A DNA stretch of 46,198 nt from a virus. A model generated the notes under the pieces. The model saw only the letters and a program-made list of their open reading frames with translations, was not told the DNA's origin and did not search any database. Position numbers and translations under genes: made by a program. The DNA is taken from IMG/VR virus record IMGVR_UViG_3300045988_053311; one strand, 5' to 3'. Below, one piece after another: positions 9,358 through 40,789 of this stretch (within the stretch, counting starts at the first letter, position 1; every line of letters starts with the position of its first letter).

Positions 9358-9377
9358 CTTCTTATCCTCCTTATTTT

Positions 9378-12701: not shown

Positions 12702-13181
12702 ATGAGTAAGAAAAAAGGTGGAAAACTCAAATGGGTAGTTTTAGCAGTTGTTGCCATTGGCGTTATCGGTGCCGTTGGTGGAAATTCGGATTCAAACACC
12801 ACGTCTTCTTCCAGCGCATCTGCAAAGACGGAATCTGCAAAAGAAACTGATACACCTACACCAATTGAATACACAGCCGTATCAGTCAACGATATGATGT
12901 CTCAGCTTGATGATAACGCACTTGGAGCATCTGATAAATACAAAGGGCAATACTTAGAAATCACTGGTAGACTCGGGAACATTGATTCATCTGGAAAATA
13001 TATCTCCCTCTATCCCGACGATGAATATGCGATAATCGGCGTTCAGTGCCAGATTAAAAATGATGAGCAGCGTTCGAAAGTCGCATCAATGGCAAAAGGT
13101 GATACAGTCACACTAAAGGGAAAATGTACAGACGTAGGTGAAGTTCTTGGATATTCATTTGACATTGAAGAAATAGAATAA
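12702..13181 (+). CDS. Membrane-anchored OB-fold (tRNA_anti-like) protein; lysogeny-module moron, possible superinfection-exclusion function
   Basis: Start refined to MSKKKGGKLKWVVLAVVAIGVIGAVG, with RBS AGGAGGAG upstream. It has an N-terminal TM helix and a Ser/Thr linker. The C-terminal part, YKGQYLEITGRLGNID...GDTVTLKGKCTDVG, fits the tRNA_anti-like OB pattern. Confidence 0.7.
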   Translation: MSKKKGGKLKWVVLAVVAIGVIGAVGGNSDSNTTSSSSASAKTESAKETDTPTPIEYTAVSVNDMMSQLDDNALGASDKYKGQYLEITGRLGNIDSSGKYISLYPDDEYAIIGVQCQIKNDEQRSKVASMAKGDTVTLKGKCTDVGEVLGYSFDIEEIE

Positions 13182-14837: not shown

Positions 14838-14857
14838 CCCGGGGTACTATCCCCGGG
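14838..14857. terminator. Bidirectional terminator hairpin between integrase and endolysin
   Basis: CCCGGGG-TACTAT-CCCCGGG is followed by AGTTTTTATATTTTTT on the plus strand and by AATCATGTTTCTT on the minus strand. One arm encodes the endolysin C-terminus. Confidence 0.7.
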
Positions 14858-16067
14858 AGTTTTTATATTTTTTAAAGCTTCCTGCAGGTACATATTCTCG
14901 CACAAATCCTTCAGACGGGTGTCCAAGTCGGACAAGATAATATTTCTTTCCGGCAGAATCCTTAATGGTTGCTCCTTTAATTACGTCTACCAGGGTGTTT
15001 TTCTTGATTTTTGGCCAGAGTGTAGATTTTGTCTTTCCGGCGTCCACAAACGTTTGAGTATCTTTACTCATTCTGGCTACGTAAGCAACTGTTTCGGTGT
15101 TTGTAGCAGAGTTAGAAGAATTCTGTTCTGTGTAGAATCTTCTTGCCTGGTAAAACTTAGCGCTGTGGGTATATGTGAGTCCATTTTTATAAGAAGGCGT
15201 TCCTGATCCATGCCCGAACAGCATAGGAATTCCATTTTTCCAGCCAACGAATCCTTCTACGTGTTTTGCCTCTCCGGAACCGAAGTAAATCAAATCGCCA
15301 ACCTGCAGTTTTTTATAGTCAGCTATGGTCAGATTATCTTTTCCTCCATAATAGGCTACCTGTGTACCTTTTTCCACCTGTTCCCCTGTCCAAGTTCCGA
15401 TCTGAATACCATAGGCCTTTTCAAATGATTTCCACCAAATGGAGCTACAATCTGAATAGCCGTTAAATACCTGGCTTCTGAGATCAGATTGTGTGTACTG
15501 ATTCCTCCCTTCTCTTGACTCAGCAAGCTCTACCGCTTTGAATGCTCCTTTTGACACTGTCTCATCTCCTTCATTGTCATCTATATTATCATATTGTGTG
15601 AGGTTATTTTGATTGATAATTAACATTACCTGCTGCACATAATCTGGATCCGTTGCGTAGCCTCCATCCCAAATCGCCTGAATACAGGTTTCTGGGCTGG
15701 ATTGATTACATGCAAAGGCATATCTTCCCAGACTGGTGATCAAATCGAAATAGTCTGATACGGATTCTTCCAGACTATCATAAGCCCGGAATAGGTCTGT
15801 GATTGTCGTAAATGTATGACCGTCATAACATTCTTTCGTTTTTGAGCTGTAGACTTTTCCATTCCAATTCGTTCCGGCTTTGATTCCAAAATAAGCATTT
15901 GCTTTTACCATCATGTCCGATGCGCCCCATCCTGTTTCTAGTGCCGCCTGAGCAATGCAGACAGATGGAAGAATCCATTTTCGACCAGATGATTTTCGGT
16001 TGTGGTATTCGTTCATAGCGTATCTGGACAATGTAGCGATAAAATTTTTAACTTGTGCTGATGACAT
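14847..16067 (-). CDS. Modular endolysin: GH73 N-acetylglucosaminidase + NlpC/P60-like Cys peptidase + SH3-like wall-binding domain
   Basis: CIAQAALETGWG...YATDPDYV is a GH73 motif. GYSDCSSIWW...HVEGFVGW gives the NlpC/P60-type Cys and His. The C-terminal part, KYYLVRLGHPSEGFVREY, is SH3-like. Confidence 0.85.
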   Translation of the reverse strand: MSSAQVKNFIATLSRYAMNEYHNRKSSGRKWILPSVCIAQAALETGWGASDMMVKANAYFGIKAGTNWNGKVYSSKTKECYDGHTFTTITDLFRAYDSLEESVSDYFDLITSLGRYAFACNQSSPETCIQAIWDGGYATDPDYVQQVMLIINQNNLTQYDNIDDNEGDETVSKGAFKAVELAESREGRNQYTQSDLRSQVFNGYSDCSSIWWKSFEKAYGIQIGTWTGEQVEKGTQVAYYGGKDNLTIADYKKLQVGDLIYFGSGEAKHVEGFVGWKNGIPMLFGHGSGTPSYKNGLTYTHSAKFYQARRFYTEQNSSNSATNTETVAYVARMSKDTQTFVDAGKTKSTLWPKIKKNTLVDVIKGATIKDSAGKKYYLVRLGHPSEGFVREYVPAGSFKKYKNSRG

Positions 16068-28090: not shown

Positions 28091-28603
28091 TTACTTACCA
28101 AGAATCTCGAAGTGAGGAATCAGTGTATACGGACCGCCTACACTGGTAATCTTGAACACGTTATCCTTATTCTCATTCATGTACTGATAAAATCCATTTC
28201 TGTAATCACCATCAGTTACTGTTCCGCCAGTCCACTCACCCTCCCAGAAGAACGATTCATCTGAGAATGTGATAGTGTCTTCCAGAGCGTTGTTGATCTG
28301 CTGCTTCCACTCTTTAGGCGGCACCCATGGAAGAATCTTACCGTCTTTATCAGTAATGGTTATATCGCCGTTCTGGACGGTATAGCGGATGTGTAACTGT
28401 GCGTTGTCAGTTGCGTCTGGTCCGTACTTTTTAAGGATTGCTCCTTTGTCTGTAATGAGGTCAACGCCGGATAAAACATGAGGATACCAGTACGCATCTC
28501 CAGTTGTGGCACTTTCGTAATAGTTGAATAGTGTTATAATTTTGCTATAGATATATCTCACCTCACATTTACGGGAGTTGAAACTGCGTCCACATCGCTC
28601 CAA
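28091..28603 (-). CDS. Head-closure/minor capsid-type protein with uncertain, non-ATG start
   Basis: ORF track. The listed start is a TTG 46 nt inside the upstream endonuclease-like gene. A strong SD, GAGGTGA (near 28556-28562), is followed only by ATC, ATT or ATA codons. Confidence 0.6.
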   Translation of the reverse strand: MERCGRSFNSRKCEVRYIYSKIITLFNYYESATTGDAYWYPHVLSGVDLITDKGAILKKYGPDATDNAQLHIRYTVQNGDITITDKDGKILPWVPPKEWKQQINNALEDTITFSDESFFWEGEWTGGTVTDGDYRNGFYQYMNENKDNVFKITSVGGPYTLIPHFEILGK

Positions 28604-29184
28604 CCGCGATATCTTCTCTTGATTATAGTGTTATAGGAAATCCCAGTTATTTCACTCCATTCTGTTAATGTATGCGTTTCCCCATTTACAGTAACGTAAA
28701 CATTGTCTCTTTTATTGTTGGCTTGCTGTTTCAAAGTTGCCCATCTACAATTTTCAGGACAATAATTTTCATCCACGTTTACTCTATCTATAGTAAGATT
28801 TTCAGCATATCCATTTCCTAATGCCCATTCCTTAAAATTAAGGAATGACTTTTCCCATTCTTCACAAACAGAAATGTCCCTGCCACCATAGTTTTTATAA
28901 GATGGATCTCCAATATAGGAACAGCGTCTGCGCATATCTACCCATATAGTGTATAAGCGTGTGTTTCTATCTCCATGAATTTTCTTAGCTTCCGACACTC
29001 TATCTTTTTGATAGCAGCCGCAACTAAGTGTATTCTTGCGAATCAGATTATTTGAAGCTACAATTACTTTATTTCCACAATCGCATTTACAAAGCCACTG
29101 AGATTGCCCTGTTTTATTAACTTTCTCAATGGCTATAAGTCTTCCAAATCTTTGATTTGTTAAATTTCTTGTTGGTCTTGGCAT
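28558..29184 (-). CDS. HNH-like (DRxD...N...N) homing-endonuclease-like protein with N-terminal zinc ribbon and C-terminal HTH; paralogue of 40789..41247
   Basis: Start refined to MPRPTRNLTNQRFGRL. Motifs present: CKCDCGN...SCGC, YTIWVDMRRRC...YKNYGGRDISVCEEW...FKEWALGNGY...LTIDRVNVDENYCPENCRWATLKQQANN, and TLTEWSEITGISYNTIIKRRYRGWS. Confidence 0.75.
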   Translation of the reverse strand: MPRPTRNLTNQRFGRLIAIEKVNKTGQSQWLCKCDCGNKVIVASNNLIRKNTLSCGCYQKDRVSEAKKIHGDRNTRLYTIWVDMRRRCSYIGDPSYKNYGGRDISVCEEWEKSFLNFKEWALGNGYAENLTIDRVNVDENYCPENCRWATLKQQANNKRDNVYVTVNGETHTLTEWSEITGISYNTIIKRRYRGWSDVDAVSTPVNVR

Positions 29185-29247
29185 AATAAATCCATCTCCT
29201 TTTAAGAAAAAGGACTTACTGCTGTCTCGCGACATGCGCCTCCTTAA

Positions 29248-29517
29248 TTATTCTTTCTGCACTGTCTGCTTAATAACCTGATTCACACCAGTGGCCGACA
29301 ATCCATTAAACATACCGACTGCAACTGCCGTGATATAATCCGTTGCCGGGAAATCTGGGATAATTCCCATTCCGACTGCTCCGAGAAATCCACCAATAAC
29401 CGCCATGATTACTGGAATCCATTCATCAGAGATTCTTTTTGATGCTTTACAGCCCATTCCTACGATGTAGCAAATCATAACGATTGTGATACATGAGCCT
29501 AATGTTGAAATGTCCAT
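29248..29517 (-). CDS. Holin (Hol44 / holin superfamily V-like), displaced from the endolysin
   Basis: 89 aa with 2-3 TM segments. IPVIMAVIGGFLGAVGMGIIPDFPATDYITAVAVGMFNGLSATGVNQVIKQ matches the Hol44-type consensus (IPDFP...GL.ATG.NQ..KQ). Confidence 0.75.
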   Translation of the reverse strand: MDISTLGSCITIVMICYIVGMGCKASKRISDEWIPVIMAVIGGFLGAVGMGIIPDFPATDYITAVAVGMFNGLSATGVNQVIKQTVQKE

Positions 29518-31601: not shown

Positions 31602-32234
31602 TCACTGGAATAACTGGATATTCTGAGCAATTGCAGCCTGTCTTTCGGACGGGTCTTTAATTGCTTCGATATCTTTCTTAGTCATACTTCCCGGTGTCTG
31701 CTGCTGTCCAACGCGAGTGGTAAATCTTGCCTGGTTCTGCTGAGCCTGTTGCTGAGATTCATCTACAAAAGCGGATGCGTCAGACTGTTTCATCTGCTCG
31801 ATCAGATCATTCAGTCCAAGGATTTTACCGTCTTTCAGTTTAAGGCCTGCTTCTTTGATGTCTGCCATAACAGACTTCTTAGCCGCTTCACTGGAAAACT
31901 TAACATCATCGAGTGCCGCCTTGAGTGCGTCTGAGAAATCACGGTCATAGATTTTTGCATTAAATTCTTTCTCTGCATCTGCCGCTTTCTGTTTCCAAGT
32001 CTCTAACTCGGTTTTAACATTTGCCGGGTCGATACCGTCAAAACCTTTCAGGGTCTCTTCTGCTGCTTCAGCACGTTCTTTCCAGTCATCACGTTCTCCC
32101 TCGACTTTCGACAGGGTTTTTGCTACTTCCTTAGCATTTTTGTAATGCTCAGAGAGTGCTTTCTTCACATCTGCCTGTTTATCTTCCGGGATTTCGATTC
32201 CAAATGATTTTAATGTGTCAATAAGTTTCTGCAT
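31602..32234 (-). CDS. Scaffolding protein (Phage_GP20-like)
   Basis: Highly charged coiled-coil protein: MQKLIDTLKSFGIEIPEDKQADVKKALSEHY...ERDDWKERAEAAEETLK. It lies upstream of the capsid gene. Confidence 0.85.
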   Translation of the reverse strand: MQKLIDTLKSFGIEIPEDKQADVKKALSEHYKNAKEVAKTLSKVEGERDDWKERAEAAEETLKGFDGIDPANVKTELETWKQKAADAEKEFNAKIYDRDFSDALKAALDDVKFSSEAAKKSVMADIKEAGLKLKDGKILGLNDLIEQMKQSDASAFVDESQQQAQQNQARFTTRVGQQQTPGSMTKKDIEAIKDPSERQAAIAQNIQLFQ

Positions 32235-32311
32235 ATATATCCTCCTGGTCGTGTTTATTGACCTGCCGCCGCAGGTATTGGATTAAGCCAGTTAGACCAC
32301 TGGCAGGGTAA

Positions 32312-32383
32312 TGGAATGAGAGGACTTGAACCTCTGACGTCAAGAATTCAGCATCTCCGCTCTTCCTACTGAGCTACATTCCA
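32312..32383 (-). tRNA. 72-nt tRNA-like gene with canonical acceptor, D and T arms but a non-pairing anticodon stem (pseudo-tRNA or non-canonical tRNA)
   Basis: The minus strand folds as TGGAATG-TA-GCTC-AGTAGGAA-GAGC-G-GAGAT-GCTGAAT-TCTTG-ACGTC-AGAGG-TTCAAGT-CCTCT-CATTCCA. The acceptor (7 bp), D (4 bp) and T (5 bp) stems are perfect. GAGAT and TCTTG do not pair, and there is no encoded CCA. Confidence 0.55.
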
Positions 32384-32534
32384 CATAACCCGGATTCCCG
32401 GGTTAGCAAGATATTTAACGTGTTATGCCTGCCACGAGTTGTTTCGGATATTTATTTCTTTTTTTAAAAGAAAAGTATGAATAACAAAAACCTTAATCAA
32501 GGAGGTGAGCCATCTTGCGTGCCAGATGACAAAT

Positions 32535-32582
32535 ACGCACGGCAGGATTCGAACCTGTTTAACTTTCCATTAAAGCGTGCGC
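32535..32582 (-). ncRNA. 48-nt mini tRNA-like element (acceptor stem + short hairpin + T arm)
   Basis: The minus strand reads GCGCACG-CTTTAATGGAAAG-TTAA-ACAGG-TTCGAAT-CCTGC-CGTGCGT. It has a 7-bp acceptor-like stem (G1-U72 wobble) and a canonical TTCGAAT T-loop. The D and anticodon arms are replaced by a 4-bp hairpin. Confidence 0.4.
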
Positions 32583-32666
32583 ACCAGCTACTAAATTAAA
32601 GAAAGGAGGATTAAAACGAAAATGTCAAAACAACCGTTTTACTTGTGCTTCCTGCTGCACAATTAC

Positions 32667-32713: not shown

Positions 32714-33271
32714 TTAAAGCATATCCCGAAGTTTTTCTACGTATCTCTTGACAAGATCGCGTTCCTCCCGGCACTCCGCATCTTTAGACATATCGCTCAT
32801 TTCTGTTGTAAGTTCGTCCAGATGTTCTTCCAGAGCGGCAAGCATCTTCCTTTTGCAGTCTTCAGACTTGCCGGAGCGATAGCTTTGCTTCTGCGCCATG
32901 TAGTCATCGTAAGCGTCTCGCCCATCAGAGCGACTGTAATGCCCTCTGACATAATGTTCACCACGTCTGGCATAAGAACTGCCCCTGTCGTAATCCGGCA
33001 TCATTCTGCCATCATTTGAACTGTATCTCCCCATACTGTCGCGCTTTCTTCCACGTTCACTGTAATCGTCATTGTATCCGCCACCACGCATCTCATCAAG
33101 AACAGTGTTGTAATATTCCACTTTCTTGTCCCAGTACTGCGTGTTCTTGATATCTTTGTACATATCAATCAGTTTGTATGTCATTTCCAGATTTCCGGTG
33201 GTCAGTCCATTATCAGCGATTTTGGAAAGTTCATCTTCGATTCTTGCACATAAGTCTTTAATATCTCTCAT
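32714..33271 (-). CDS. Low-complexity R/D/Y/S/G-rich protein with helical ends (185 aa)
   Basis: Start refined to MRDIKDL, with RBS AGGAGGTG 5 nt upstream. The centre is GGGYNDDYSERGRKRDSMGRYSSNDGRMMPDYDRGSSYARRGEHYVRGHYSRSDGRDAYDDY. Confidence 0.7.
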   Translation of the reverse strand: MRDIKDLCARIEDELSKIADNGLTTGNLEMTYKLIDMYKDIKNTQYWDKKVEYYNTVLDEMRGGGYNDDYSERGRKRDSMGRYSSNDGRMMPDYDRGSSYARRGEHYVRGHYSRSDGRDAYDDYMAQKQSYRSGKSEDCKRKMLAALEEHLDELTTEMSDMSKDAECREERDLVKRYVEKLRDML

Positions 33272-33282
33272 AATCACACCTC

Positions 33283-33705
33283 CTACGCTTCTCTGGTCAC
33301 AACAATGTTTGCGTTCGCAACAGAAATAGCCTGATCGCTTGTGTTTTCTACCGCGATATTAACGCAACATCCGCGTGGTACATCCACGTAAATTCCGGAA
33401 GACACATTATTGTACTGATCCACTGCCGCCGGCGTGGAAATCATCTGAGAAGATAATACAGGTTCGCCAGAGATTGCGATAGCCAGAGAAATAGCTCCGA
33501 CAGTACCGCCTGTTGGAATTGCGATATTGCCAGAAAAATCCACGAAAAATCTTGCTTTACACTGGTTAGTAAGCCCTCTCAGGGTAATGATTCCGCTTCC
33601 CTCTCTGTGCTGAATACAGTTAGAACCTTTGACTGCTGTGTTTGAAAATACTACGTTTCCATTTGCTGCTACAGTCTGAGCAGCTACATTTGTAAATTCT
33701 GCCAT
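33283..33705 (-). CDS. 140-aa all-beta protein; pattern reminiscent of TNF/C1q-like jelly-roll domains (BclA C-terminal domain / BxpB-like)
   Basis: RBS GAAAGGAG lies upstream. NVVFSNTAVKGSNCIQHREGSGIITL...ARFFVDFSGNIAIPTGG...ISLAIAISGEP...NIVVTREA alternates in the way exosporium TNF-like domains do. The assignment is from memory only. Confidence 0.65.
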   Translation of the reverse strand: MAEFTNVAAQTVAANGNVVFSNTAVKGSNCIQHREGSGIITLRGLTNQCKARFFVDFSGNIAIPTGGTVGAISLAIAISGEPVLSSQMISTPAAVDQYNNVSSGIYVDVPRGCCVNIAVENTSDQAISVANANIVVTREA

Positions 33706-33726
33706 AAAAATACTCCTTTCATATCA

Positions 33727-33751
33727 CAAAAGGACAGGTCTCAGCCTGCCC
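33727..33751 (-). terminator. Intrinsic terminator/attenuator inside the low-complexity gene island
   Basis: The minus-strand RNA reads GGGCAGG-CUGAGA-CCUGUCC (one G-U pair) followed by UUUUGUG. It lies between the 33817 and 33283 genes. Confidence 0.6.
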
Positions 33752-33816
33752 CTCTGTGTAATACGGCATAAGCCGACATCCGAAATCAATCGAAAGATAC
33801 TCTCAATATGAAGTTA

Positions 33817-34596
33817 TCAGCAATTGCATCCAGCGTTGCATCCGCATCCGTAATACGTGTTCGGATTAGGAACCTGATATGCCGGAATCGGTGCCGGATT
33901 GATTGCATTAATGAGCTGCTGTGTCTGAGAAGCCATTGCAGTTGTGAGAAGTGCAGACTGGCGATCCTGGGATGCGGCGCGTCTGAGGTCATTGTTTTCA
34001 GCCTGAAGAGAAGAAATCTTTTCATTGCAAAGATAATCAAGAATGGCTCTTGTCCCTGCATTCTGGCTGTCGATAATGTCTCTTGTGTTGCTGTTCATGG
34101 TGTTCTGCAATGCACAGGTGTTCTGTGCCATATTGTAATTTACGCCCTGGATAGCTTCCCTGGTTTCACAACAGCAGTTCGCAAGCTGTGCCTGGAGCGC
34201 ATTTGTGTTCTGCATATTGGCTACAGTATCGGCATTGATTGCCTGCTGGATTCCAAAACCAGTCTGCATGATATTGGTGTTGATTCCGTTAAATCCGGTA
34301 AGCATACCGTTGTTCACTGCATAGAATCCATCACAGAGTCCGTTATTGATTCCGTCAAGCTTGCTGATCACAGCGGAATTGTCGAATCCTCTCTGAATAT
34401 CCGCCTGAGTAGCTGCTGTGGCTACATATCCGCCGCCGTTTCCATTATTGCCCCAGCCATTGTTTCCCCATCCGAAGAAAGCAAAGATGAATAAAACAAT
34501 AATCCACCAGCTACCATCTCCACCAAACATGCCGTCATTATTTCTACCGTTTCCAGTAGCAGCGGCAATATCTGCTAAGCTATAATTTCCATCCAT
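33817..34596 (-). CDS. N/G/Q-rich membrane-anchored protein with Cys-rich C-terminus (259 aa)
   Basis: GGDGSWWIIVLFIFAFFGWGNNGWGNNGNGGG is a TM helix flanked by Gly/Asn, in the style of YjcZ-type sporulation peptides. The protein has a long Asn/Gln-rich helical region with CCCETR and ends in YYGCGCNAGCNC. Confidence 0.75.
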   Translation of the reverse strand: MDGNYSLADIAAATGNGRNNDGMFGGDGSWWIIVLFIFAFFGWGNNGWGNNGNGGGYVATAATQADIQRGFDNSAVISKLDGINNGLCDGFYAVNNGMLTGFNGINTNIMQTGFGIQQAINADTVANMQNTNALQAQLANCCCETREAIQGVNYNMAQNTCALQNTMNSNTRDIIDSQNAGTRAILDYLCNEKISSLQAENNDLRRAASQDRQSALLTTAMASQTQQLINAINPAPIPAYQVPNPNTYYGCGCNAGCNC

Positions 34597-34625
34597 AATA
34601 TAATCTCCTTTTTGTGTATTTACAT

Positions 34626-34641
34626 CAATCTGGCCAGATTG
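34626..34641. repeat. Perfect 16-bp palindrome CAATCTGGCCAGATTG upstream of the 33817..34596 gene
   Basis: Read directly from the sequence. It lies in the 52-nt gap between two island genes. Confidence 0.8.
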
Positions 34642-34648
34642 TAATGTA

Positions 34649-34870
34649 CTATTTCATTCCTTTCAACATGTGCTGGAATTGCCCTGCCATTTGCTGAACC
34701 TGATTAAGTTGCTGTTGAGAAATCTTTCCAGACTGCAACATTTTCTCGACTTCTGCTTTCGGATCTCCCTTAAAATTCTGTTTAAACTGCATAAATTGTT
34801 GTATCATCTGCATTGGTCCGTTTCCCTGCGGCATCCCGCCGCCAAGTGCGTTAAATAATGGATTACTCAT
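34649..34870 (-). CDS. Gln/Met-rich small protein (73 aa)
   Basis: Start refined to MSNPLFNALGGGMPQGNGPMQMIQQFMQFKQNFKG, with RBS GGGAGGAA 6 nt upstream. Confidence 0.65.
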   Translation of the reverse strand: MSNPLFNALGGGMPQGNGPMQMIQQFMQFKQNFKGDPKAEVEKMLQSGKISQQQLNQVQQMAGQFQHMLKGMK

Positions 34871-35333
34871 CTGCATTTCCTCCCTTGATTGCTGATTCCT
34901 GTACGGTATTAGCCCTAACAGGTTCAGAAAATGAATTTAATCGGTTTATAATAGCTTCGTATTTGCCTTTCAAATCATCGTATTCCTGTCGAGTAACATA
35001 TTTACTGTCCATGTTCTGAACAGGCTGCTTAGGCGGCATCTGAGAACCTACCTCGTGGTATTCAAATGTCCGCAGTGGTTGTGGCATACCGGATACATCT
35101 GTGGATTTTATGTAGAACTTTTCACTTTCGCTGTCCATCAGCAAAACACTTGTCCCGGGTGCTACCAGATAGGATTTTGCGCCGACTTCGCCGGATACCC
35201 ACAGGATACCGCTATTATTCTGCTGTGGTTGCTGTACTGGTTGAGCTGGAATCTGGACAGGCTGTTGCTGGAACTGGTTCATTTGCCCAGGAGCACCAAA
35301 ACTATATTGATAAGGATTGTTATATAATGCCAT
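34863..35333 (-). CDS. Protein with Q/P-rich N-terminus and small beta domain (156 aa)
   Basis: Start refined to MALYNNPYQYSFGAPGQMNQFQQQPVQIPAQPVQQPQQ. It then continues ILWVSGEVGAKSYLVAPGTSVLLMDSESEKFYIKSTD. It is the first gene after the 35368-35401 terminator. Confidence 0.7.
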   Translation of the reverse strand: MALYNNPYQYSFGAPGQMNQFQQQPVQIPAQPVQQPQQNNSGILWVSGEVGAKSYLVAPGTSVLLMDSESEKFYIKSTDVSGMPQPLRTFEYHEVGSQMPPKQPVQNMDSKYVTRQEYDDLKGKYEAIINRLNSFSEPVRANTVQESAIKGGNADE

Positions 35334-35367
35334 CTTATACACCGCCTTTCTGATTATATTTTTACAT

Positions 35368-35401
35368 AAAAAAAGAACCGGAAACAGGTCGTTTCTGGCT
35401 C
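35368..35401 (-). terminator. Intrinsic terminator in the middle of the head-gene region
   Basis: The minus-strand RNA reads GAGCCAGAAAC-GACCU-GUUUCCGGUUC followed by UUUUUUU (A7 on the plus strand at 35368-35374). Confidence 0.7.
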
Positions 35402-35421
35402 TAATTAGTATCCAAAAAGTA

Positions 35422-35622
35422 TCAGCACACTTTAATTATTTTATTGTTCACCCGGCGGCTTAACCGTTTTGCCGTAGATATACTCACGTTCATCTGCTCA
35501 GCGCAGTATTCGAGCGTATGTTCTTTACATCTCAGTCGGAACAATCTTTCTTCGTCCGGTGTGAAATTACACTCTATCAAGAATCTGTCTATATCTTTCT
35601 TCGTGAACACATATAATTTCAT
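35422..35622 (-). CDS. Sigma-70 region-4-like (LuxR/ECF-type HTH) small DNA-binding protein
   Basis: FTPDEERLFRLRCKEHTLEYCAEQMNVSISTAKRLSRRVNNKI matches the region-4 pattern (LT..E..vf.L......s..EiA..l.iS..TVk....R...K). It is 66 aa. Confidence 0.65.
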   Translation of the reverse strand: MKLYVFTKKDIDRFLIECNFTPDEERLFRLRCKEHTLEYCAEQMNVSISTAKRLSRRVNNKIIKVC

Positions 35623-35642
35623 GAGCATACCCCTTACTAATG

Positions 35643-35948
35643 CTAACGCTGATTCTGCGCAAGATAATTTGTAAGCTTCTGTTTTGTTTTTTTTAATTCT
35701 TCTACATTATTCCCACTAATCTGACTATCCAGCATGGTTGATAGCACTTCCAAAATCAATGAATCACGTTCCGCAATCCTCTGAAGACTCTCGTAATCTC
35801 GCTTATCATGTTCTTCTAGTGTCTCAACTCGCTTGTTGAGCCGAAATGCCGGAGTAATCCACTTAAAAATAACAGCTGCTGCCCCTCCGACAATAGACAC
35901 CCCTCCGCAGATAGAAAGAAAAATCTGTACAAATTCTGATATGCTCAT
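35643..35948 (-). CDS. N-terminally membrane-anchored coiled-coil protein (101 aa)
   Basis: FVQIFLSICGGVSIVGGAAAVIF is a TM helix, followed by a charged helical region. Confidence 0.65.
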   Translation of the reverse strand: MSISEFVQIFLSICGGVSIVGGAAAVIFKWITPAFRLNKRVETLEEHDKRDYESLQRIAERDSLILEVLSTMLDSQISGNNVEELKKTKQKLTNYLAQNQR

Positions 35949-35952
35949 TTAG

Positions 35953-36336
35953 CTACTCCTTTTCCCAGTAGTATATTGGGATCTCATTACCACTATCCCA
36001 TGTATCGAAATATTTGCCCTCTTGTACCGTCACCACATGACCATCTACGCAGAGAATGTATGTGCCTGTCGGATGTTCTGCACAAAAATCATTGACTGTA
36101 TAGATATATCGCTCTGATTGTTCAATCAGTTTGCGTCTGTACCCATGTTTGTAGAGGTACGCTCCCCAAACGTAATTAGCTGATGGCATATCTGACAGAG
36201 CATATGCCTGTATCATTAATCCGACAAATACCGTTTCCCAGTCGAAGTCAGTTGCTTTGCATATTGCTCGGACAACGCAATCTCCTGTTCTCTTATCCTT
36301 AACAGGATTTGGATTATAATATTCCCATCTGTCCAT
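35953..36336 (-). CDS. 127-aa protein with papain-like Cys...His...Asp arrangement (putative cysteine peptidase fold)
   Basis: Residues GDCVVRAI (Cys20), VDGHVVTV and FDTWDSG are arranged as in such folds. The start is translationally coupled (TGATG) to the minor capsid gene. The assignment is inferential. Confidence 0.6.
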   Translation of the reverse strand: MDRWEYYNPNPVKDKRTGDCVVRAICKATDFDWETVFVGLMIQAYALSDMPSANYVWGAYLYKHGYRRKLIEQSERYIYTVNDFCAEHPTGTYILCVDGHVVTVQEGKYFDTWDSGNEIPIYYWEKE

Positions 36337-37565
36337 CAGTCAATCCCCTTTGCTGTCTTATATCGTTTTGCCGCTCCTCTGGCTTTTGCGGCATTCTGGC
36401 GGTTCCACTTCGCTATCATAAGTCGGTCTTGCAGCTCTCTTAGGTCATTCTGCTTGCAGTAGTCCTTGTATGTAGCATTTTGTTTCTGTAAAAGATAAGA
36501 CTTCCGGTCAAGGTCTTGTTGGAGTACGAATTTTGCCTGTTCGTCCTTGCAGTTATCAACCGCTGCTTGCATTCCAAGGACTTCCCTCTTTGTCTTTCGG
36601 ATTCTTCGCTCATAAGTACGTTGTCTCTGTTCCTTTTCATACTGTTTTCCCTTGTCGGCTTTGTCCCGTGCCGATAGTTCTGCATAAGGATTAAATTCCC
36701 CGTCACTTGCCCCAAAGCTATGCCGACAGTTGACCCCTGACAGTCCACTTGCCGTTCCGTATCCGGTCAATGAGAACGGCGGAAATTTCTCACTCTTGCC
36801 AGAACGAGAGTATATCTTTCCTTGCCACCATGCGTGATTTCCCGGATTCTCGCCGCCGTCACCTGTTCTGGCTCCCATGTGAGCACTGACCAGAACTAAA
36901 TCCCAGCCCATTTCTTCCATGCGTTTGAGGGATATATCTCCAGTAGCCTGAGCCACGCCAGTTCTAACAGAACGTGCGACTGCTGTTTCGATCGTGTCTT
37001 TTCTGCCAGATGGATATGTGACCGTAACACCATCACTCACAACATTATTAACCGCCTCCTTGATGGCTTGCGTATAGCCAACTGTTCCAGTCATCACATG
37101 ATTGTATGCAAGGTCGCATTGGTTGATATACAGCGTCTGAGCCGCATTTGCAGTTGTCCTTGTGAAGTTCCGCCATTCTCCCATTGTAGCAAGCATATTT
37201 CGCTCCATGAGCCTTATCATAGCTGGCGACTGTTCGAGCGGTACAGGGCTTAATCCTGCCGCCTTATATACCTTATCATCATAGTTCATTGCAGTGATTC
37301 CGGCATCCTCAAACGCTTCAAGAAGTTCCTGCTGTTCGCGTTTGGTGTATTTGGATAATTCTGCCAGAATGTCTTCTAGCAGTTCACCAGATTCCTGTAG
37401 CGTTCTGATTCTCCACGCATCTGCATTGGTTAGAATATAATCCTCACCTCTGCCGATTCTTGCCATCATTCTCGACACGATCTCAGAGATGATATATTGA
37501 TGCAGTTCTTCGGCAATCTGCTCACTGCCCTCTGTTATTCTACGTAAATATTCTGGACTAAGCAT
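36336..37565 (-). CDS. Minor capsid / head-morphogenesis protein (SPP1 gp7 / Mu F-like)
   Basis: 409 aa. GVTVTYPSGRKDTIETAVARSVRTGVAQATG and GVNCRHSF are typical of this family. Confidence 0.8.
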   Translation of the reverse strand: MLSPEYLRRITEGSEQIAEELHQYIISEIVSRMMARIGRGEDYILTNADAWRIRTLQESGELLEDILAELSKYTKREQQELLEAFEDAGITAMNYDDKVYKAAGLSPVPLEQSPAMIRLMERNMLATMGEWRNFTRTTANAAQTLYINQCDLAYNHVMTGTVGYTQAIKEAVNNVVSDGVTVTYPSGRKDTIETAVARSVRTGVAQATGDISLKRMEEMGWDLVLVSAHMGARTGDGGENPGNHAWWQGKIYSRSGKSEKFPPFSLTGYGTASGLSGVNCRHSFGASDGEFNPYAELSARDKADKGKQYEKEQRQRTYERRIRKTKREVLGMQAAVDNCKDEQAKFVLQQDLDRKSYLLQKQNATYKDYCKQNDLRELQDRLMIAKWNRQNAAKARGAAKRYKTAKGID

Positions 37566-37644: not shown

Positions 37645-37821
37645 TTACTTACTCTCTGGATATTCCTCTTTATACAGCATTTCATATTCTTCCACAGGAA
37701 GTTTTCCTTTTTTCACATACTCAATACCATATTCTCTTACTTTGTCCTGATATTTCTCAGGAATTGCATCATATGTAATAGTTCCTACAATCAATCTGTT
37801 AAAATAAACTTTTGCCATCAT
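37645..37821 (-). CDS. XkdX-like small phage protein (58 aa)
   Basis: MMAKVYFNRLIVGTITYDAIPEKYQDKVREYGIEYVKKGKLPVEEYEMLY is of the type usually found after tail-fibre genes. RBS AAAGGAG lies upstream. Confidence 0.6.
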   Translation of the reverse strand: MMAKVYFNRLIVGTITYDAIPEKYQDKVREYGIEYVKKGKLPVEEYEMLYKEEYPESK

Positions 37822-37837
37822 TTTATTTCTCCTTTTC

Positions 37838-37990
37838 TTATTCAGCATTTCCAAGTGTTTCAAGCAGTTCGCAGACAGCAATCTCAAGGTCATTGATACG
37901 TTCTTCATTGCTTACCACCGTTTCTTTTTTCTCAAAGTCTGATTCAGCCAAACCAAGTTTCTTAATCATCTTTTTCTGCATTTCAGTCAT
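37838..37990 (-). CDS. Small helical protein (50 aa), below ORF-track cutoff
   Basis: Hand translation gives MTEMQKKMIKKLGLAESDFEKKETVVSNEERINDLEIAVCELLETLGNAE. It has an ATGA overlap with the upstream stop. Confidence 0.45.
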   Translation of the reverse strand: MTEMQKKMIKKLGLAESDFEKKETVVSNEERINDLEIAVCELLETLGNAE

Positions 37991-39090
37991 TTTGCCACCT
38001 CCGCTAAAGATATTACATATTCCTCAGAACTTGGTATAGGGATTCTGTAATCATCACCGTGACTGTTTTTAAATGTCAGTGTACCGCCTGCTTCAACTTC
38101 AAGAGGATCTTGGAATGTATCTCCCATAATGTCTGATATATCAATTGTCCTGTCCCCTTTGTGATATTTCTTTTCCACAAAATCAACAAAATTCCCACTC
38201 TCTCCATAACCATCTAGGTCAAGAATGGCTTGTGGGATTGGATATGATGTTTCTTGATTTTTGGTATCTAAATATATAACTTCATTCACAGAAGCACTCA
38301 TCAGTTCACCTGCATTATACGGATAATAGTCTGCTGGAAACATAGCTTCGAATTCCTCTGGGGTGGATGGTTCGTTACCTGCGCCGAACATTTGTGTGAG
38401 GTCAAAAATATTCATTCGCATCGTAACGTTATCCACGGTTACTTTGTCTTTTACAAATATTACTGGATTAAAAGCGTAACTAATAATTATTGCTTTTTTT
38501 AGTGGGGAAGTCCTGCCGTTAATTGCAAAACCATAATTTCCATCAGAATATTTATCGGCTTTAACTAAATATTTATGACCTGATACATATTTTGATGCAA
38601 ATAAATATACGATTGTATTAATTCCTTCATCGTTAGATACACTGCAAGTTCCATTTATTGTCCACGAACCATCCTTATTGTTTATAAAAGAAATACCATT
38701 TTTCGTAATAGATTGCTCATTATTTAAATTCAACTGATTCCAAACAATCGTCTTACCTCCGATGCTTTTAATGCTTGCTACTTTCGCACCACTTGGAACC
38801 GTTTTCTGGTAAGCTTCCGCATCATCTGTCTGAAATTCATAGCTGATACCCTGATTGAGTTTCCAGAGTGCATCGAGTTTTCTGTCAGTTTTGACAAGGG
38901 ATGTTTTATCGGCTTTAGATATTAAATCTTCCTTTAGCGACTTAACTGCGTCACCAGTTGCTTTCGCATCAGCAAATCCACCGTCTACGGATAGGGTTTT
39001 ATCTGATACGTATTCCGGCGTAATTCCTTCTCTTGCAAACGTTCTTTTTTTTCCATCTGCTGTGATTATTCCCTTGAATGTATCAGCCAT
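37987..39090 (-). CDS. Fibre / receptor-binding-like protein (367 aa) located in the head module
   Basis: The N-terminus, TLSVDGGFADAKATGDAVKSLKEDL, is the motif seen at the start of phage fibre and appendage proteins. It is followed by a beta-rich globular part. Confidence 0.7.
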   Translation of the reverse strand: MADTFKGIITADGKKRTFAREGITPEYVSDKTLSVDGGFADAKATGDAVKSLKEDLISKADKTSLVKTDRKLDALWKLNQGISYEFQTDDAEAYQKTVPSGAKVASIKSIGGKTIVWNQLNLNNEQSITKNGISFINNKDGSWTINGTCSVSNDEGINTIVYLFASKYVSGHKYLVKADKYSDGNYGFAINGRTSPLKKAIIISYAFNPVIFVKDKVTVDNVTMRMNIFDLTQMFGAGNEPSTPEEFEAMFPADYYPYNAGELMSASVNEVIYLDTKNQETSYPIPQAILDLDGYGESGNFVDFVEKKYHKGDRTIDISDIMGDTFQDPLEVEAGGTLTFKNSHGDDYRIPIPSSEEYVISLAEVAK

Positions 39091-39337
39091 TATTATTTCC
39101 CTCCGTTGCTTTCAAACTCACATACCCATCTGCGTCAATATCAAGCCCAACGCCCTTATCGGACAGGTATGTCTGGACTGCTTCTGCTATAGCTTCTTTA
39201 CTGGTTCCGATTCCGTCTATACAGAGTTTATACAGATACTTCTCTTTTCGCGTGATCGGTTTTGGAATTTCACCTGTGTAATCACCTGTCAAGTACGCAA
39301 GATACTTTTCTTCCCTTGTTACTGGTTTATCTGCCAT
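39083..39337 (-). CDS. Small protein with duplicated P.TR.EKYL motif (84 aa)
   Basis: PVTREEKYLAYLTG and PITRKEKYLYKLCI form an internal repeat of the kind found at N-termini of some Gram-positive phage fibre or hyaluronidase proteins. Confidence 0.6.
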   Translation of the reverse strand: MADKPVTREEKYLAYLTGDYTGEIPKPITRKEKYLYKLCIDGIGTSKEAIAEAVQTYLSDKGVGLDIDADGYVSLKATEGNNNG

Positions 39338-39343
39338 CTTTTT

Positions 39344-40789
39344 TTACTCCTCTCCGAATAGTGCTGGCTCGTCTGGCTGAGCTTCTTTGACCATTGCCTT
39401 TGCTTCAGATTCCGTCATTCCTTCAAACTTCACGAAGTACATCCATGCCGGAACCTTGCCAGTGGTCACATACTGCCACCATCTAGCACGGTCGTTTTCA
39501 CGCACATACAGAATGTCTCCGAAATCATAATTGACTTCATAAGCCCCAACCGGTGCAAGCCCGTACAAATCAGCGTAAACGTTCAATGCGTAAATAACTT
39601 CGTTCAAACAGGATTCCAGTTTATCTCGAACGTCTTTGATAAACTGCACTGTCCTCTGCTGTTCTGCTTCCACTCCTGTAGCTGTCTGAATGCCGCTAGA
39701 TTCGTTAAAAACGAAGTACCCGTTGGAGAATCCAATCTTGTACCCTAACTGGCTTAAAAGGGCATTTATGCCGCTTATACGGGTATCTGTGTTGAGAATT
39801 GGATTGATTTCTTGATAGAACTCTTTCTTATCCTGCCCGAATACGTTTTTCACATAATCTGGTAAGCTCATTTCTAAGCATCTATGTTCCATTGCCTGTG
39901 GTGTCATAGCGGAGACAGGTGAGCCACTCGGCATCAACAATCTGTCATCTGCCAGAACAGTTCGCTTAGAATCAAGAATTTCTTTTGCGTTCCTGCTATA
40001 TGCAATGTCGAGGTCTTTTAACTCCTCAATGGCTTCGGCAAATATCGGAAGTCCCAGTGGCGTACTAATATCCACGTTATTTGCCTGCGGTGTCCGCAGT
40101 ACTCCGTACAGAGGCCCGTCCAGCTTCTCACCGTTCGCCTTAAGAATCGGCGGAGTGTCTGCCATTAGGTCAGCCCACTTTGTCTGTTTAAGGTCAATCT
40201 TATCGCCAATGCTCTGAGGGGATTTTGACACATAGGCTCTATTAGAAACATAATACGGATAGGTTGTCACTCCGTCCACTGTTGTCTCAACAAACCTATG
40301 ATATTCAAGCCGTGTATAATATTTCCGTCCAACCGTATAAGAATCCTTGAATATAATCCCTTTGATTTCCTGATTATCGTAATCTACAATCATCACATCA
40401 GCCGGTGTAAATACGTCAAGGCTCTCACCGTTTGGTTTAATAAATACTGTTCCGTAGGCACAGCCGTACTCTACCCAGTGCCGAATCTGGAAGTATACCT
40501 TGTCAATCTGTTCCTGCAACCATGTTGCCCTTGCAGAACCATCTATCTGAATGCCTATCGCCAGTGTTGCGAGCCGAGCTGTCTCTGAGCAGACAGATTT
40601 CGCGAAATTAATTGTCTTGATATTATTCTTATCATCTAACCAGTATGGAACGCTTCGATATATGTTTGCACATTTATTAATCAACGATTCCATTTCTGGA
40701 AATTCTGCTGCCTGGATATTAAAGTCCTCTTCGGCTTGTTTTTTGAAAATCATGTTAAACCACCTTTTTAGTGTTGTTGTAAGTCCCAT
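39344..40789 (-). CDS. Portal protein (SPP1 gp6-like)
   Basis: 481 aa, positioned between terminase and head genes. An alternative start, MIFKKQAEEDF at 40753, has RBS AAAGGTGG. Confidence 0.8.
   Translation of the reverse strand: MGLTTTLKRWFNMIFKKQAEEDFNIQAAEFPEMESLINKCANIYRSVPYWLDDKNNIKTINFAKSVCSETARLATLAIGIQIDGSARATWLQEQIDKVYFQIRHWVEYGCAYGTVFIKPNGESLDVFTPADVMIVDYDNQEIKGIIFKDSYTVGRKYYTRLEYHRFVETTVDGVTTYPYYVSNRAYVSKSPQSIGDKIDLKQTKWADLMADTPPILKANGEKLDGPLYGVLRTPQANNVDISTPLGLPIFAEAIEELKDLDIAYSRNAKEILDSKRTVLADDRLLMPSGSPVSAMTPQAMEHRCLEMSLPDYVKNVFGQDKKEFYQEINPILNTDTRISGINALLSQLGYKIGFSNGYFVFNESSGIQTATGVEAEQQRTVQFIKDVRDKLESCLNEVIYALNVYADLYGLAPVGAYEVNYDFGDILYVRENDRARWWQYVTTGKVPAWMYFVKFEGMTESEAKAMVKEAQPDEPALFGEE

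Follow-up and report, generated by a model that had tools for sequence, protein, structure and literature searches.

Organization of the locus

The stretch of viral DNA analysed here (46,198 nt, hereafter the window) contains five co-oriented minus-strand ORFs of odd composition, which we call A, B, C, D and E. All the ORFs that a preliminary description of this DNA had placed at 32714-35342 are present with the starts given there; they have good ribosome-binding sites and are co-oriented with the head genes. Residue counts within the window bear out the unusual composition claimed for the five genes, e.g. Gln accounts for 11.5% of A and 20.5% of B vs 2-5% in most other window genes. The same description had, however, taken the island to consist of five genes only; r4 and up127, which adjoin upstream, both belong to the module, so that it comprises about seven genes and extends to position 36336. 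The features of the locus are the following.

32310-32384, minus strand: tRNA-Gln (CUG), at the junction between the module and the scaffold gene
32714-33271, minus strand: gene E, helical N- and C-terminal segments and R/G/Y/S/D-rich centre (phrog_28802)
33283-33705, minus strand: gene D, 140-aa stand-alone protein, predicted TNF/C1q-like jellyroll of the ExsF/BxpB and BclA-CTD type
33727-33751, minus strand: terminator-like hairpin between C and D (-22.6 kcal/mol, z -5.9)
33817-34596, minus strand: gene C, 259 aa, hydrophobic anchor flanked by Gly/Asn/Trp (phrog_16490)
34626-34641, no strand: perfect 16-bp palindrome between B and C with a TGGCCA core (CAATCTGGCCAGATTG)
34649-34870, minus strand: gene B, 73-aa Met/Gln-rich helical protein (phrog_22984)
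34863-35333, minus strand: gene A, P/Q/Y-rich N-terminus, beta core of about 50 aa, C-terminal helix and charged tail (phrog_21718)
35358-35353, minus strand: -10-like TATAAT, just past the r4 terminator
35368-35401, minus strand: intrinsic terminator after r4 (-13.5 kcal/mol, z -3.4, U7 tail)
35422-35628, minus strand: r4, 68-aa sigma-70 region-4-like helix-turn-helix protein, candidate regulator
35643-35948, minus strand: up101, N-terminal transmembrane helix and coiled-coil tail
35953-36336, minus strand: up127, 127 aa (phrog_3754, unknown function), in most cases the module's first structural gene

The window was compared with 63 related loci; counts out of 64 genomes include the window. 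The usual order in these loci is r4, terminator, up127, A, B, hairpin, C, (terminator), D, E. The series A-B-C-D-E is intact in 46 of the 63 loci and C-D-E is present in 57; E likewise follows D in 57/63, and B is located between A and C in most of them. A homologue of up127 was found in 37 of the 63 loci, and a homologue or analogue of r4 lies upstream of the module in 25. A mobile accessory cassette of seven genes, found in phages of gut and rumen Clostridia, has A to E as its core.

Proteins A-E gave no sequence match in Pfam, NCBIfam, PADLOC or PDB, and profile searches of Pfam, NCBIfam, PHROG, PADLOC and PDB detected no sequence-level relative of known function for any module protein. PADLOC returned no family for all eight proteins at E <= 1, and no structural family was matched in PHROG or Pfam. 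The matches of the five proteins are to unknown-function PHROGs only, i.e. they do lie outside the characterised phage families, as had been stated. According to a hydrophobicity scan, A, B, D and E have neither a hydrophobic N-terminus nor an export signal, and a strongly hydrophobic stretch is found, among the five proteins, in C only.

Transcription signals and tRNA

The terminators and the palindrome reported earlier are all present, and the notion that the island has internal signals of its own is supported by their conservation. The relative MT835739 has about 89% nucleotide identity to the window and its coding DNA differs by about 10-12%; both terminators and the palindrome are identical between the two, and equivalent elements recur in distant relatives. 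The same type of hairpin followed by a T-run is found after r4 in at least 10 other loci, and a GC-rich hairpin with a T-run occupies the C-D spacer in 19 of the 29 loci that have such a spacer. The palindrome is unique in the window, where 0.01 matches are expected by chance. Palindromes centred on TGGCCA or TGCGCA are present in 24 of 41 B-C spacers vs about 2 expected, and their arms covary (score 0.37 vs 0.20 in shuffles, with 0 of 500 shuffles as high); no covariation with the palindrome is visible in the recognition helix of r4. A sigma-70 promoter scan showed no enrichment (9 found vs 13.8 expected); promoters are represented by -10-like motifs only.

Of the tRNA-like RNAs that had been proposed downstream, one is a real tRNA-Gln, detected by both ARAGORN and Rfam (43.7 bits). 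The second piece, near 32530-32585, is supported by neither Rfam nor ARAGORN and shows no conservation in MT835739. A tRNA gene lies at the same junction in loci L049 (Gln-UUG) and L051 (Ile-UAU), and the composition analysis revealed nothing special in the CAG codon bias of the module genes.

The upstream genes and protein C

The candidate regulator r4 matches phrog_1190 'sigma factor' (E 5e-6), Pfam Sigma70_r4 (E 0.008, 16 bits, the cut-off being 24.1) and TIGR02937 (E 4e-4, below cut-off). With only 68 aa it would comprise region 4 alone and cannot be a complete sigma factor. In most loci r4 is situated directly 3' of the late lysis genes, which suggests expression in the lytic cycle. The neighbouring up101 has its peak hydrophobicity (2.21) at residues 9-27 and found no family in Pfam or PHROG; its homologues adjoin the holin in L042 and L045, and it looks like a holin-associated lysis-cassette protein carried along with the module.

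In up127, Cys20, His100 and Asp111 do not vary among 29 sequences sharing 37-57% identity with the protein of the window (alignment A4); lying in a DC...HVV...D pattern, they would correspond, in the right order, to the catalytic Cys, His and Asp/Asn of a papain-like enzyme. No peptidase family of Pfam, Peptidase_C39 included, was matched by the 29 homologues at E <= 1, and there was no PDB profile match. The family contains at least 7999 clusters, all of about 125-130 aa and none of them named. Judging from the conserved residues, we regard up127 as a putative papain-like peptidase or cross-linking enzyme.

Protein C consists of 14.7% Asn and 11.2% Gly and contains 10 Cys (3.9%). Its hydrophobic segment, WWIIVLFIFAFFGW, was located by the hydrophobicity scan, and the protein also has a coiled-coil-like region rich in Asn/Gln, an invariant CCC triplet and the motif C..CGC at its C-terminus. 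Seven Cys are conserved (alignment A6): C141-143 are invariant, and C161, C251, C257 and C259 are found in at least 90% of the sequences. The family has at least 7997 clusters without names or a Pfam entry, and Pfam searches with C gave coiled-coil noise only. An earlier suggestion that the N-terminus of C resembles YjcZ found no NCBIfam support at E <= 1: the NCBIfam/TIGR model of tiny-TM sporulation proteins was not matched, and the single match (to StbC) is spurious.

The N-terminus of C and the motif of up127 bring to mind a membrane-active system, such as a bacteriocin-like weapon, superinfection exclusion or another form of defence, that lysis releases or arms. In such a scheme up127 would be a C39-like peptidase that cleaves the effector, C, behind its double-glycine-type leader, D would bind a receptor, and release would proceed via the neighbouring holin and endolysin. 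In 19 of 49 C proteins a (S/T)xADIAAVTGNN-type start is indeed followed by a Gly-rich hydrophobic stretch, and defence genes concentrate at prophage ends. There are also clostridial loci in which a sigma-like regulator and a holin accompany a cargo, i.e. UviA/UviB with the bacteriocin BCN5 and TcdR/TcdE with toxins. By analogy, the position of the module behind holin and endolysin may recall such loci, as it too has a small sigma-region-4-like regulator and holin-type membrane proteins upstream of a cargo without signal peptides; the cargo itself is, however, unrelated to BCN5 or to the toxins of the TcdR/TcdE locus. We consider a weapon or shield of this kind very improbable: the other 28 of the 49 C proteins start differently (MPVxP), and C, with 230-330 aa among its homologues, a conserved coiled-coil and a Cys-rich tail, is unlike class II bacteriocins. 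Neither PADLOC nor, for up127, Peptidase_C39 gave a match, a transporter and an immunity gene are absent, and no role is left for A, B and E.

The low-complexity proteins A, B and E

Alignments could be made for A (A5) and E (A7). A had no PDB or Pfam match. In E the centre carries the motif RGxSY..RG..(RDSMGRYSRD or HYVRGHYSRD). On the spore-surface reading considered below, the module proteins may have compositional parallels in CotG/ExsB, GerQ and ExsY/CotY.

Protein D

D had been described as an all-beta protein recalling the TNF/C1q fold of BxpB and the BclA C-terminal domain (CTD), and AlphaFold2 and Foldseek bear this out. The model (pLDDT 98, pTM 0.90) predicts a ten-strand TNF-like jellyroll, and every one of the 22 top-ranking Foldseek matches in the PDB is a TNF/C1q protein, with 9h38 (F-BclA CTD; E 7e-8, TM 0.72-0.79) in first place; 8d02, 9h3d and 7r1m (BxpB/ExsF/ExsFA) reach TM 0.76-0.77. 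An earlier, low-confidence model led to the same structural family. The likeness is a structural one: no Pfam family was found at E <= 0.1, BclA_C (PF18573) was not matched, and a 74-sequence profile found no TNF/C1q chain in the PDB. D shares 90% nucleotide but 98.6% amino-acid identity with its counterpart in MT835739 and is hence under strong purifying selection. At 50% identity the family is represented by 757 sequences; most of the 150 listed have about 135-160 aa, the rest being shorter (maximum given 196 aa), and no long or stalk-bearing fusion is among them.

The closest known proteins are ExsF/BxpB (ExsFA) and the CTDs of BclA and F-BclA from the exosporium of the Bacillus cereus group (9h3d, 8d02, 7r1m, 1wck, 9h38), with which D has the fold in common over nearly the whole chain (TM 0.66-0.79, rmsd 2.5-3.7 A). 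Like ExsF/BxpB, D is a stand-alone protein of about 140 aa without a signal peptide, and its gene adjoins genes of Cys-rich and low-complexity proteins, as is the case for exosporium proteins. On the other hand, identity in the structural alignments is only 10-14% with no detectable sequence similarity, and D is encoded by phages, including phages of hosts that are not known to sporulate, unlike the Bacillus proteins. A BclA-type collagen-like glycoprotein was considered and rejected, as D has 140 aa, no repeats, neither collagen stalk nor exosporium leader, and no NCBIfam exosporium-leader match. By analogy D is presumably a homotrimer. In ExsF, the trimer interface forms clefts that accommodate Pro-rich leader peptides (PMC12357932).

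As the BFVD matches show, receptor-binding tips of the TNF/C1q type are also frequent on viral fibres, and D would share its fold and, presumably, its trimeric state with such knobs and with capsid decoration trimers. It differs from them in having no shaft or capsid-binding extension and in the location of its gene, which is usually outside the structural operon.

Distribution and placement in phage genomes

The module was found 3' of the endolysin gene in at least 11 loci (L001, L010, L018, L019, L025, L032, L035, L036, L044, L045, L050), while at least 6 others (L003, L004, L008, L021, L022, L038) have it at a prophage end, directly beside tRNA or housekeeping genes of the host; in L002 and L006 it follows the integrase. 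Placement between the minor capsid and scaffold genes is restricted to 3 of 64 genomes (the window, L049 and L051), where the order is portal-mincap-module-scaffold and the module is co-oriented with the late operon. There is no conserved head-operon synteny, as other loci place the module after the endolysin or integrase; the same block occupies different positions in different phages, as in a moron or accessory cassette. The genomes belong to mutually unrelated types, 44-46 kb (the window type), 60 kb (type-2) and 40 kb (Butyrivibrio virus Ceridwen, where a homologue of up127 is directly upstream of A). Thousands of gut and rumen Clostridia phages carry the cassette, mostly after the lysis genes at the prophage end.

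The earlier view of a foreign, self-contained island within the head operon is supported, given that the same gene set occurs elsewhere at quite different genome positions. Taken as a whole, the preliminary description holds with respect to the foreign island, its conserved signals, the fold of D and the lack of a characterised family, and fails on the five-gene extent, the plural tRNA-like RNAs and YjcZ.

Staphylococcus and Streptococcus prophages have morons and lysogenic-conversion cassettes in the interval from the lysis genes to attR. The module resembles them in being directly 3' of the endolysin and beside the attachment site, in its own terminators, in a position that varies between related phages and in a content unrelated to virion building. 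It differs from them in its cargo, which comprises a regulator and six structural-type proteins that co-evolve as a fixed set, where a moron has one secreted toxin or enzyme; the module has no secretion signal and occurs also in a phage without integrase and inside a head operon.

The three genomes with head-operon placement could suggest, in line with the second hypothesis of the preliminary description, that the module encodes accessory decoration, cement or ejection proteins, added to or packed in the capsid late in assembly, with D trimers on capsid threefold positions or fibre tips. The late-operon orientation in these genomes would fit, as would cytoplasmic proteins without export signals, the frequency of TNF/C1q knobs on viral fibres and the presence of the module in a probably virulent phage (PMC7372960). 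A virion role is nevertheless weakened by the fact that head-operon placement is confined to these three genomes; in the other 61 of 64 the module is outside the structural operon, after endolysin or integrase and beside att. It also has its own regulator and terminators and spans unrelated genome types, whereas a decoration protein has to match a single capsid lattice. A membrane-anchor protein and a shaftless stand-alone TNF domain would be unusual for tailed-phage particles, and structural PHROG or Pfam annotations are lacking. We judge a virion role distinctly unlikely.

That the genes are simply an ordinary, lineage-specific part of an SPP1-type head module, or non-functional low-complexity ORFs, would agree with their ribosome-binding sites and their co-orientation with the head genes. 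The comparative data already contradict this, and its probability is close to negligible: the gene order is conserved also in phages with no head genes in common with the window, the families are very large (C, D and up127 each have about 8000 clusters or more, as lower bounds), D is under purifying selection, and Cys and catalytic residues are invariant.

The hosts include many Lachnospiraceae and Oscillospiraceae, and we also considered the first hypothesis of the preliminary description, spore-surface conversion, in which the mother cell of a sporulating lysogen might surround the spore with an additional layer resembling exosporium or coat. Such a layer would combine a trimer similar to ExsF/BclA with a Cys-rich protein and with low-complexity proteins similar to CotG and GerQ, and an enzyme would process them; if this is true, spore adhesion, resistance or germination could be altered. 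The best structural matches of D, the sigma-r4-like regulator and a prophage-end placement typical of conversion genes are in favour of it, and assembly from the cytoplasm of the mother cell would agree with the absence of signal peptides. The module was, however, also found in bins named Subdoligranulum, Selenomonadaceae, Solobacterium and Christensenellaceae, which to our knowledge are not spore-formers. The Pfam models BclA_C, Coat_F and GerQ and the TIGR exosporium models all remained unmatched, and the position of r4 suggests lytic-cycle expression. Ceridwen has no integrase, was observed in the lytic cycle only and was judged probably virulent (PMC7372960). Sporulation sigma factors were reported to be kept in all examined Lachnospiraceae genomes, but rumen Lachnospiraceae, including Butyrivibrio, were reported to be without key sporulation proteins (PMC3971600); the presence of the module in Ceridwen, whose host genus is among these, weakens the idea. 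A spore-surface function is in our opinion unlikely rather than far-fetched.

Proposed mode of action

The reading that we favour, and to which we would give a little less than an even chance, is that the module is self-regulated and directed at the host, and builds a membrane-anchored, Cys-rich, coat-like assembly inside the cell. r4 would be produced at the end of late transcription, or from a promoter of its own at the prophage end, and would then activate a promoter located behind its own terminator; we infer this link, as well as the timing of expression, from gene order. The hairpin before C and a leaky terminator after C may set the ratios of the products. C would insert into the cytoplasmic membrane, and D trimers would dock onto short Pro/Gly-rich terminal peptides in an ExsF-like manner, while the low-complexity proteins A, B and E may act as filling matrix or adaptor proteins and up127 may trim or cross-link the module proteins. 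D is the one protein with a structure model; composition and motifs are the basis for the roles suggested for A, B, C, E and up127. Several points speak against the favoured reading: no module protein has sequence-level relatives of known function, the r4 recognition helix and the B-C palindrome do not visibly covary, TNF/C1q domains are also frequent on viral fibre tips, and the co-orientation inside the head operon of three genomes is compatible with a virion role.

The module is a new and very widespread system. On the favoured reading its outcome would be a Cys-rich, coat-like protein assembly in the infected or induced cell, and its target would be the host cell and not a part of the virion.

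Genomic context in the window

The window comes from a temperate phage of the human gut. It encodes an integrase, a Sie-like protein and a repressor on the plus strand (11.8-14.5 kb), its endolysin gene occupies 14847-16067, and its nearest database relatives are faecal contigs named 'Bacteriophage sp.'. Read on the minus strand, the region of interest runs from the portal through the minor capsid gene, the module and the scaffold to the major capsid gene. Its features are listed below, where A to E are the five genes of unusual composition, and up127, up101 and r4 are the genes just upstream of A.

39344-40789, minus strand: portal
between portal and minor capsid, minus strand: small genes without family
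36336-37565, minus strand: minor capsid protein (PF06152, E 1e-75)
35953-36336, minus strand: up127, 127 aa
35643-35948, minus strand: up101, 101 aa, transmembrane helix and coiled coil
35422-35628, minus strand: r4, 68 aa, sigma-70 region-4-like
35368-35401, minus strand: hairpin with U7
34863-35333, minus strand: A
34649-34870, minus strand: B
34626-34641: perfect 16-bp palindrome
33817-34596, minus strand: C
33727-33751, minus strand: strong hairpin
33283-33705, minus strand: D
32714-33271, minus strand: E
between E and scaffold: non-coding stretch of ~480 nt with one tRNA-Gln(CUG), 32310-32384
31602-32234, minus strand: scaffold (PF06810)
next after the scaffold: major capsid gene

A few points outside the module should be mentioned. 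The Sie-like superinfection-exclusion gene (phrog_8545; 12660-13181, plus strand) is flanked by the repressor and integrase genes in the lysogeny module, so the phage already owns a conventional exclusion gene. A holin gene (phrog_1129; 29248-29517) and an HNH endonuclease gene (28558-29235) are embedded in the head-completion genes, a long way from the endolysin gene. Between the portal and the minor capsid, three genes at 37645-39337 (products of 84, 367 and 87 aa) lack any informative family match; in PHROG the 84- and 367-aa products have no match and the 87-aa product has a weak one of unknown function. SPP1-type head modules normally have the portal gene next to the gp7-like gene, and these three genes may be the second insert in such a head module of the window.

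The tRNA-like RNAs that had been reported downstream of the block are only partly upheld. One is a true tRNA, the Gln(CUG) listed above; the second element has no Rfam or ARAGORN support, its fold is unremarkable against shuffled sequence (z -0.9), and it is not conserved in MT835739, a close relative of the window. This second element, at 32530-32585 on the minus strand, shows a T-arm-like GGTTCGAATCC and an acceptor-like stem, and may be a decayed tRNA. A role of the tRNA in serving the Gln-rich genes is not supported, since CAG:CAA usage in the module (48:13) does not differ from that elsewhere in the window (202:73) and relatives carry other tRNAs at this junction, namely Gln-UUG in locus L049 (9240-9313) and Ile-UAU in locus L051 (9119-9194). 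The junction between E and the scaffold may be a tRNA-associated recombination spot.

Extent, gene order and distribution of the module

Loci around D homologues were taken from annotated phages, assemblies and one genome per GTDB species, the latter searched with a narrower D alignment, and each gene family was mapped by iterated HMMs across 63 non-redundant loci. The order A-B-C-D-E is kept in 46 of these and C-D-E in 57; the remaining loci are cut contigs. A homologue of up127 is also present in 37 of the 63 loci, normally immediately 5' of A, and an r4-type gene precedes up127 in 25. The window has the order up127-up101-r4 followed by A to E, and up127 is likewise ahead of r4 in L049 and L051. 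As module genes are conserved upstream of A, the island truly spans 32714-36336, and the five-gene block of the preliminary description has to be extended to up127 and r4. What emerges is a conserved, mobile and probably internally regulated seven-gene unit.

A second variant of the module is found in loci L002-L007, L015, L020, L026, L033, L043, L062 and L063. Here a 53-aa acidic protein replaces up127, E is longer (~220-250 aa) and is followed by a conserved 106-aa HExxH (metallopeptidase-like) protein and a 51-aa protein; DUF4417 and an oppositely oriented ArdA gene often come next.

Several of the module proteins are numerous in sequence databases. At 90% identity the D family comprises at least 7973 clusters and the C family at least 7997, all unnamed, and searches with three module proteins returned at least 8000 candidates each, essentially all significant and none named. 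The up127 family is also very large, stand-alone and unnamed. At 50% identity the D family has 757 representatives, and among the 150 listed most are ~135-160 aa long, with no long fusion proteins. In Butyrivibrio virus Ceridwen (L001), the sole cultured carrier, every module gene is annotated as hypothetical, and a literature search found no description of this module.

Genomic position in other phages

An endolysin gene is located within ~1 kb upstream of the module in Ceridwen and in L010, L018, L019, L025, L032, L035, L036, L044, L045 and L050, and six loci have a holin homologue upstream. On the other side, host tRNA genes and then housekeeping genes directly follow E in L008 (Fe-hydrogenase), L021 (aminotransferase), L022 (nucleoside phosphorylase) and L038 (PolC), while an integrase takes this place in L016 and L048. 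Phages of the 60-kb type (L002, L006) carry the module just after integrase and attP, and once the phage is integrated, the module marks the extreme edge of the prophage, adjoining host genes (L003 in Eubacterium ramulus; L004). The arrangement portal, minor capsid, module, tRNA, scaffold occurs, besides the window, only in L049 and L051. The proposal that the block splits a head operon thus holds for the window and these two loci; elsewhere the module follows the endolysin or the integrase. The usual home of the module is the moron position, with the lysis genes on one side and the attachment site on the other, and the head-operon site of the window is an exception. These varied positions indicate an autonomous accessory block, and we conclude that it is a phage accessory cassette; the comparative data exclude that its members are ordinary head genes or junk.

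It is quite improbable that the module products are decoration or ejection proteins of the virion. Such a role would agree with the three cases in the head operon and with the presence of the module in Ceridwen, but the other 61 genomes, the putative private regulator and the spread over unrelated phage types speak against it.

In some phages selfish genes are inserted within the module as well. An HNH gene separates D from E in Ceridwen; it is a homologue of the window HNH gene (28558-29235), and further homologues interrupt the module in L015 and L018. An AntA-domain gene is found between C and D in L004-L006, where a 1.6-kb insertion at 8725-9922 carries it, which shows that the C-D junction, the terminator site in the window, tolerates insertions.

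Signals within the module

Compared with shuffled sequence, the hairpins at 35368-35401 and 33727-33751 are much more stable (z -3.4 and -5.9, respectively), and the 16-bp palindrome is unique in the window (0.01 matches expected). In MT835739 the coding DNA is ~88-90% identical, yet neither the hairpins nor the palindrome differ at a single base. The two terminators and the palindrome named in the preliminary description are thereby borne out.

Similar signals recur in other loci. A strong hairpin with a T-run after the r4 stop codon is present in the window and in at least 10 other loci, and is followed by an A/T-rich -10-like motif (TATAAT at 35358-35353 in the window). A GC-rich hairpin with a T-run was detected in 19 of the 29 loci that have a C-D spacer; C and D are tightly coupled in about 17 others. 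The B-C spacer contains a TGGCCA or TGCGCA core in 24 of 41 cases, as against ~2 expected, centred in palindromic arms of 8-14 bp whose sequences vary among loci yet remain complementary. The covariation of the arms is 0.37, as compared to 0.20 in shuffles (0/500 as high) and 0.07-0.20 in slid controls, with a few G-U cells. Such a pattern fits either an RNA hairpin that may serve processing or stability, or a putative operator co-evolving with its binder. The palindrome was also considered as an operator of r4, but a link could not be made: the half-site sequence shows no visible covariation with the r4 recognition helix. We argue that the conserved internal signals probably set product ratios and keep the module under control apart from neighbouring genes.

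A generic sigma-70 promoter scan was not enriched over shuffled sequence, so that promoters are predicted here and our claims go no further than the -10-like motifs. The best sigma-70-like match of the island (34638-34666, minus strand; TTGAAA, 17 nt, TACAAT, 10/12) ends at the 5' arm of the B-C palindrome, hence a transcript from this candidate start would begin inside the B-C hairpin.

Properties of the module proteins

A to E each match PHROG families of unknown function, and neither single-sequence nor profile searches of the module proteins in Pfam, NCBIfam, PADLOC and PDB sequences returned a usable match, in line with the earlier statement that no characterised phage function could be assigned to the five. 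The unusual composition noted for A, B and C is confirmed by counting: Gln makes up 11.5% of A and 20.5% of B, and C contains 14.7% Asn, 11.2% Gly and ten Cys. A starts with a P/Q/Y-rich segment, continues with ~50 aa of conserved beta core and ends in a helix. In E, helical ends flank a centre with the motif RGxSY..RG..(RDSMGRYSRD or HYVRGHYSRD).

C is a predicted membrane-anchor protein with conserved cysteines, and the only one of the five with a strongly hydrophobic segment. The hydrophobic core is short (only 14 residues), with Gly/Asn/Trp-rich flanks. Its CCC motif is invariant, and another four to five Cys, including those of the C-terminal C..CGC, reach a conservation of at least 90% across the sequences; in Pfam the Asn/Gln-rich region gives coiled-coil noise only. 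Two alternative conserved N-terminal peptides precede the anchor in the alignment of C homologues (A6): an (S/T)xADIAAVTGNN-type (19 of 49 sequences), similar to a double-glycine leader, and an MPVxP-type (28 of 49). Either peptide could be a docking or cleavage signal. up127 is a Cys-His-Asp protein in which Cys20, His100 and Asp111 are invariant, and it has no family or PDB match.

The double-glycine-like motif in 19/49 C proteins, the DC...HVV...D pattern of up127 and the holin and endolysin neighbours might together suggest a bacteriocin-like or exclusion device that is armed at lysis. We regard this as very unlikely, given that there is no profile support from PADLOC or, for up127, from Pfam.

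D had been described as an all-beta protein reminiscent of BclA and BxpB, and its predicted structure agrees. The model built from a diverse 74-sequence alignment has pLDDT 98 and pTM 0.90; the one from a shallow alignment is of low confidence (pLDDT 56). The best solved match is the C-terminal domain of F-BclA (9h38, E 7e-8, TM 0.72-0.79), further ones being EDA and BclA-CTD (1wck and others); the stand-alone exosporium proteins BxpB/ExsF/ExsFA (8d02, 9h3d, 7r1m) give TM 0.76-0.77 and rmsd 2.8-3.0 A. The viral models closest to D are gut-phage proteins without a name, two of which bear the label 'BclA protein'; giant-virus collagen/C1q proteins and phage fibre tips come next. D of MT835739 is 90.3% identical in DNA and 98.6% in protein. 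The resemblance to ExsF/BxpB and BclA-CTD is thus one of predicted fold: Pfam and PDB profile searches detect no sequence-level relation to TNF/C1q or BclA members, and D, unlike BclA, has neither the defining stalk and leader nor sequence membership in BclA_C.

The nearest structures of D, the N-termini of A, B, D and E, none of which is signal-peptide-like, and the prophage-end position would all suit conversion of the spore surface. We nevertheless consider this unlikely. The module occurs in genome bins of taxa that are not known to form spores, although the binning of phage contigs is unreliable. It is also present in Ceridwen, which has no integrase, was seen only in the lytic cycle and was judged probably virulent (PMC7372960). 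The host genus of Ceridwen, Butyrivibrio, belongs to the rumen Lachnospiraceae, which lack key sporulation proteins, yet keep sporulation sigma factors (PMC3971600).

A tentative model and its implications

The module behaves as a moron or conversion cassette in position and autonomy. In its cargo, a fixed set of six proteins with a regulator, it is unlike the described cassettes of this kind. As a general model we tentatively favour, at slightly less than an even chance, a host-directed coat-like assembly that is not part of the particle. r4 would be produced as late transcription ends, or else from a promoter of its own at the prophage edge; we place it late because it follows the lysis genes or, in the window, lies within the head operon. 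It would then switch on the promoter behind its own terminator. C would anchor in the membrane, and D might trimerise and dock on short Pro/Gly-rich terminal peptides by analogy with ExsF, which docks on the leaders of BclA and F-Anchor (PMC12357932). A, B and E could serve as low-complexity matrix or adaptor proteins to be trimmed or cross-linked by up127. These steps would yield a coat-like assembly rich in cysteine, sited in the cytoplasm or on the membrane's inner face.

A bolder and somewhat unlikely version is that tailed phages of anaerobic gut Firmicutes carry a portable kit for a protein coat. From an ExsF/BclA-like trimer, a Cys-rich membrane anchor, prion-like Q/N and R/G/Y matrix proteins, a maturation enzyme and a regulator, the host cell or its spore would acquire a cross-linked, exosporium-like layer or body, inside it or on its surface, a phage-encoded cellular structure for which no counterpart is described. 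If this were true, it would point to a common origin of the spore-surface TNF-like proteins and the phage module.

There is a likely annotation trap here, as the module resembles a part of the head operon in window-like genomes. It ranks with the more common unannotated gene sets of phages from the human gut and the rumen, and why so many Clostridia phages bear six co-evolving structural-type proteins with a private regulator is a gap in the annotation of the gut virome. The module may point to a new way in which phages remodel their hosts, whether by coating the surface or the spore, by an intracellular body or by a lysis-coupled device.
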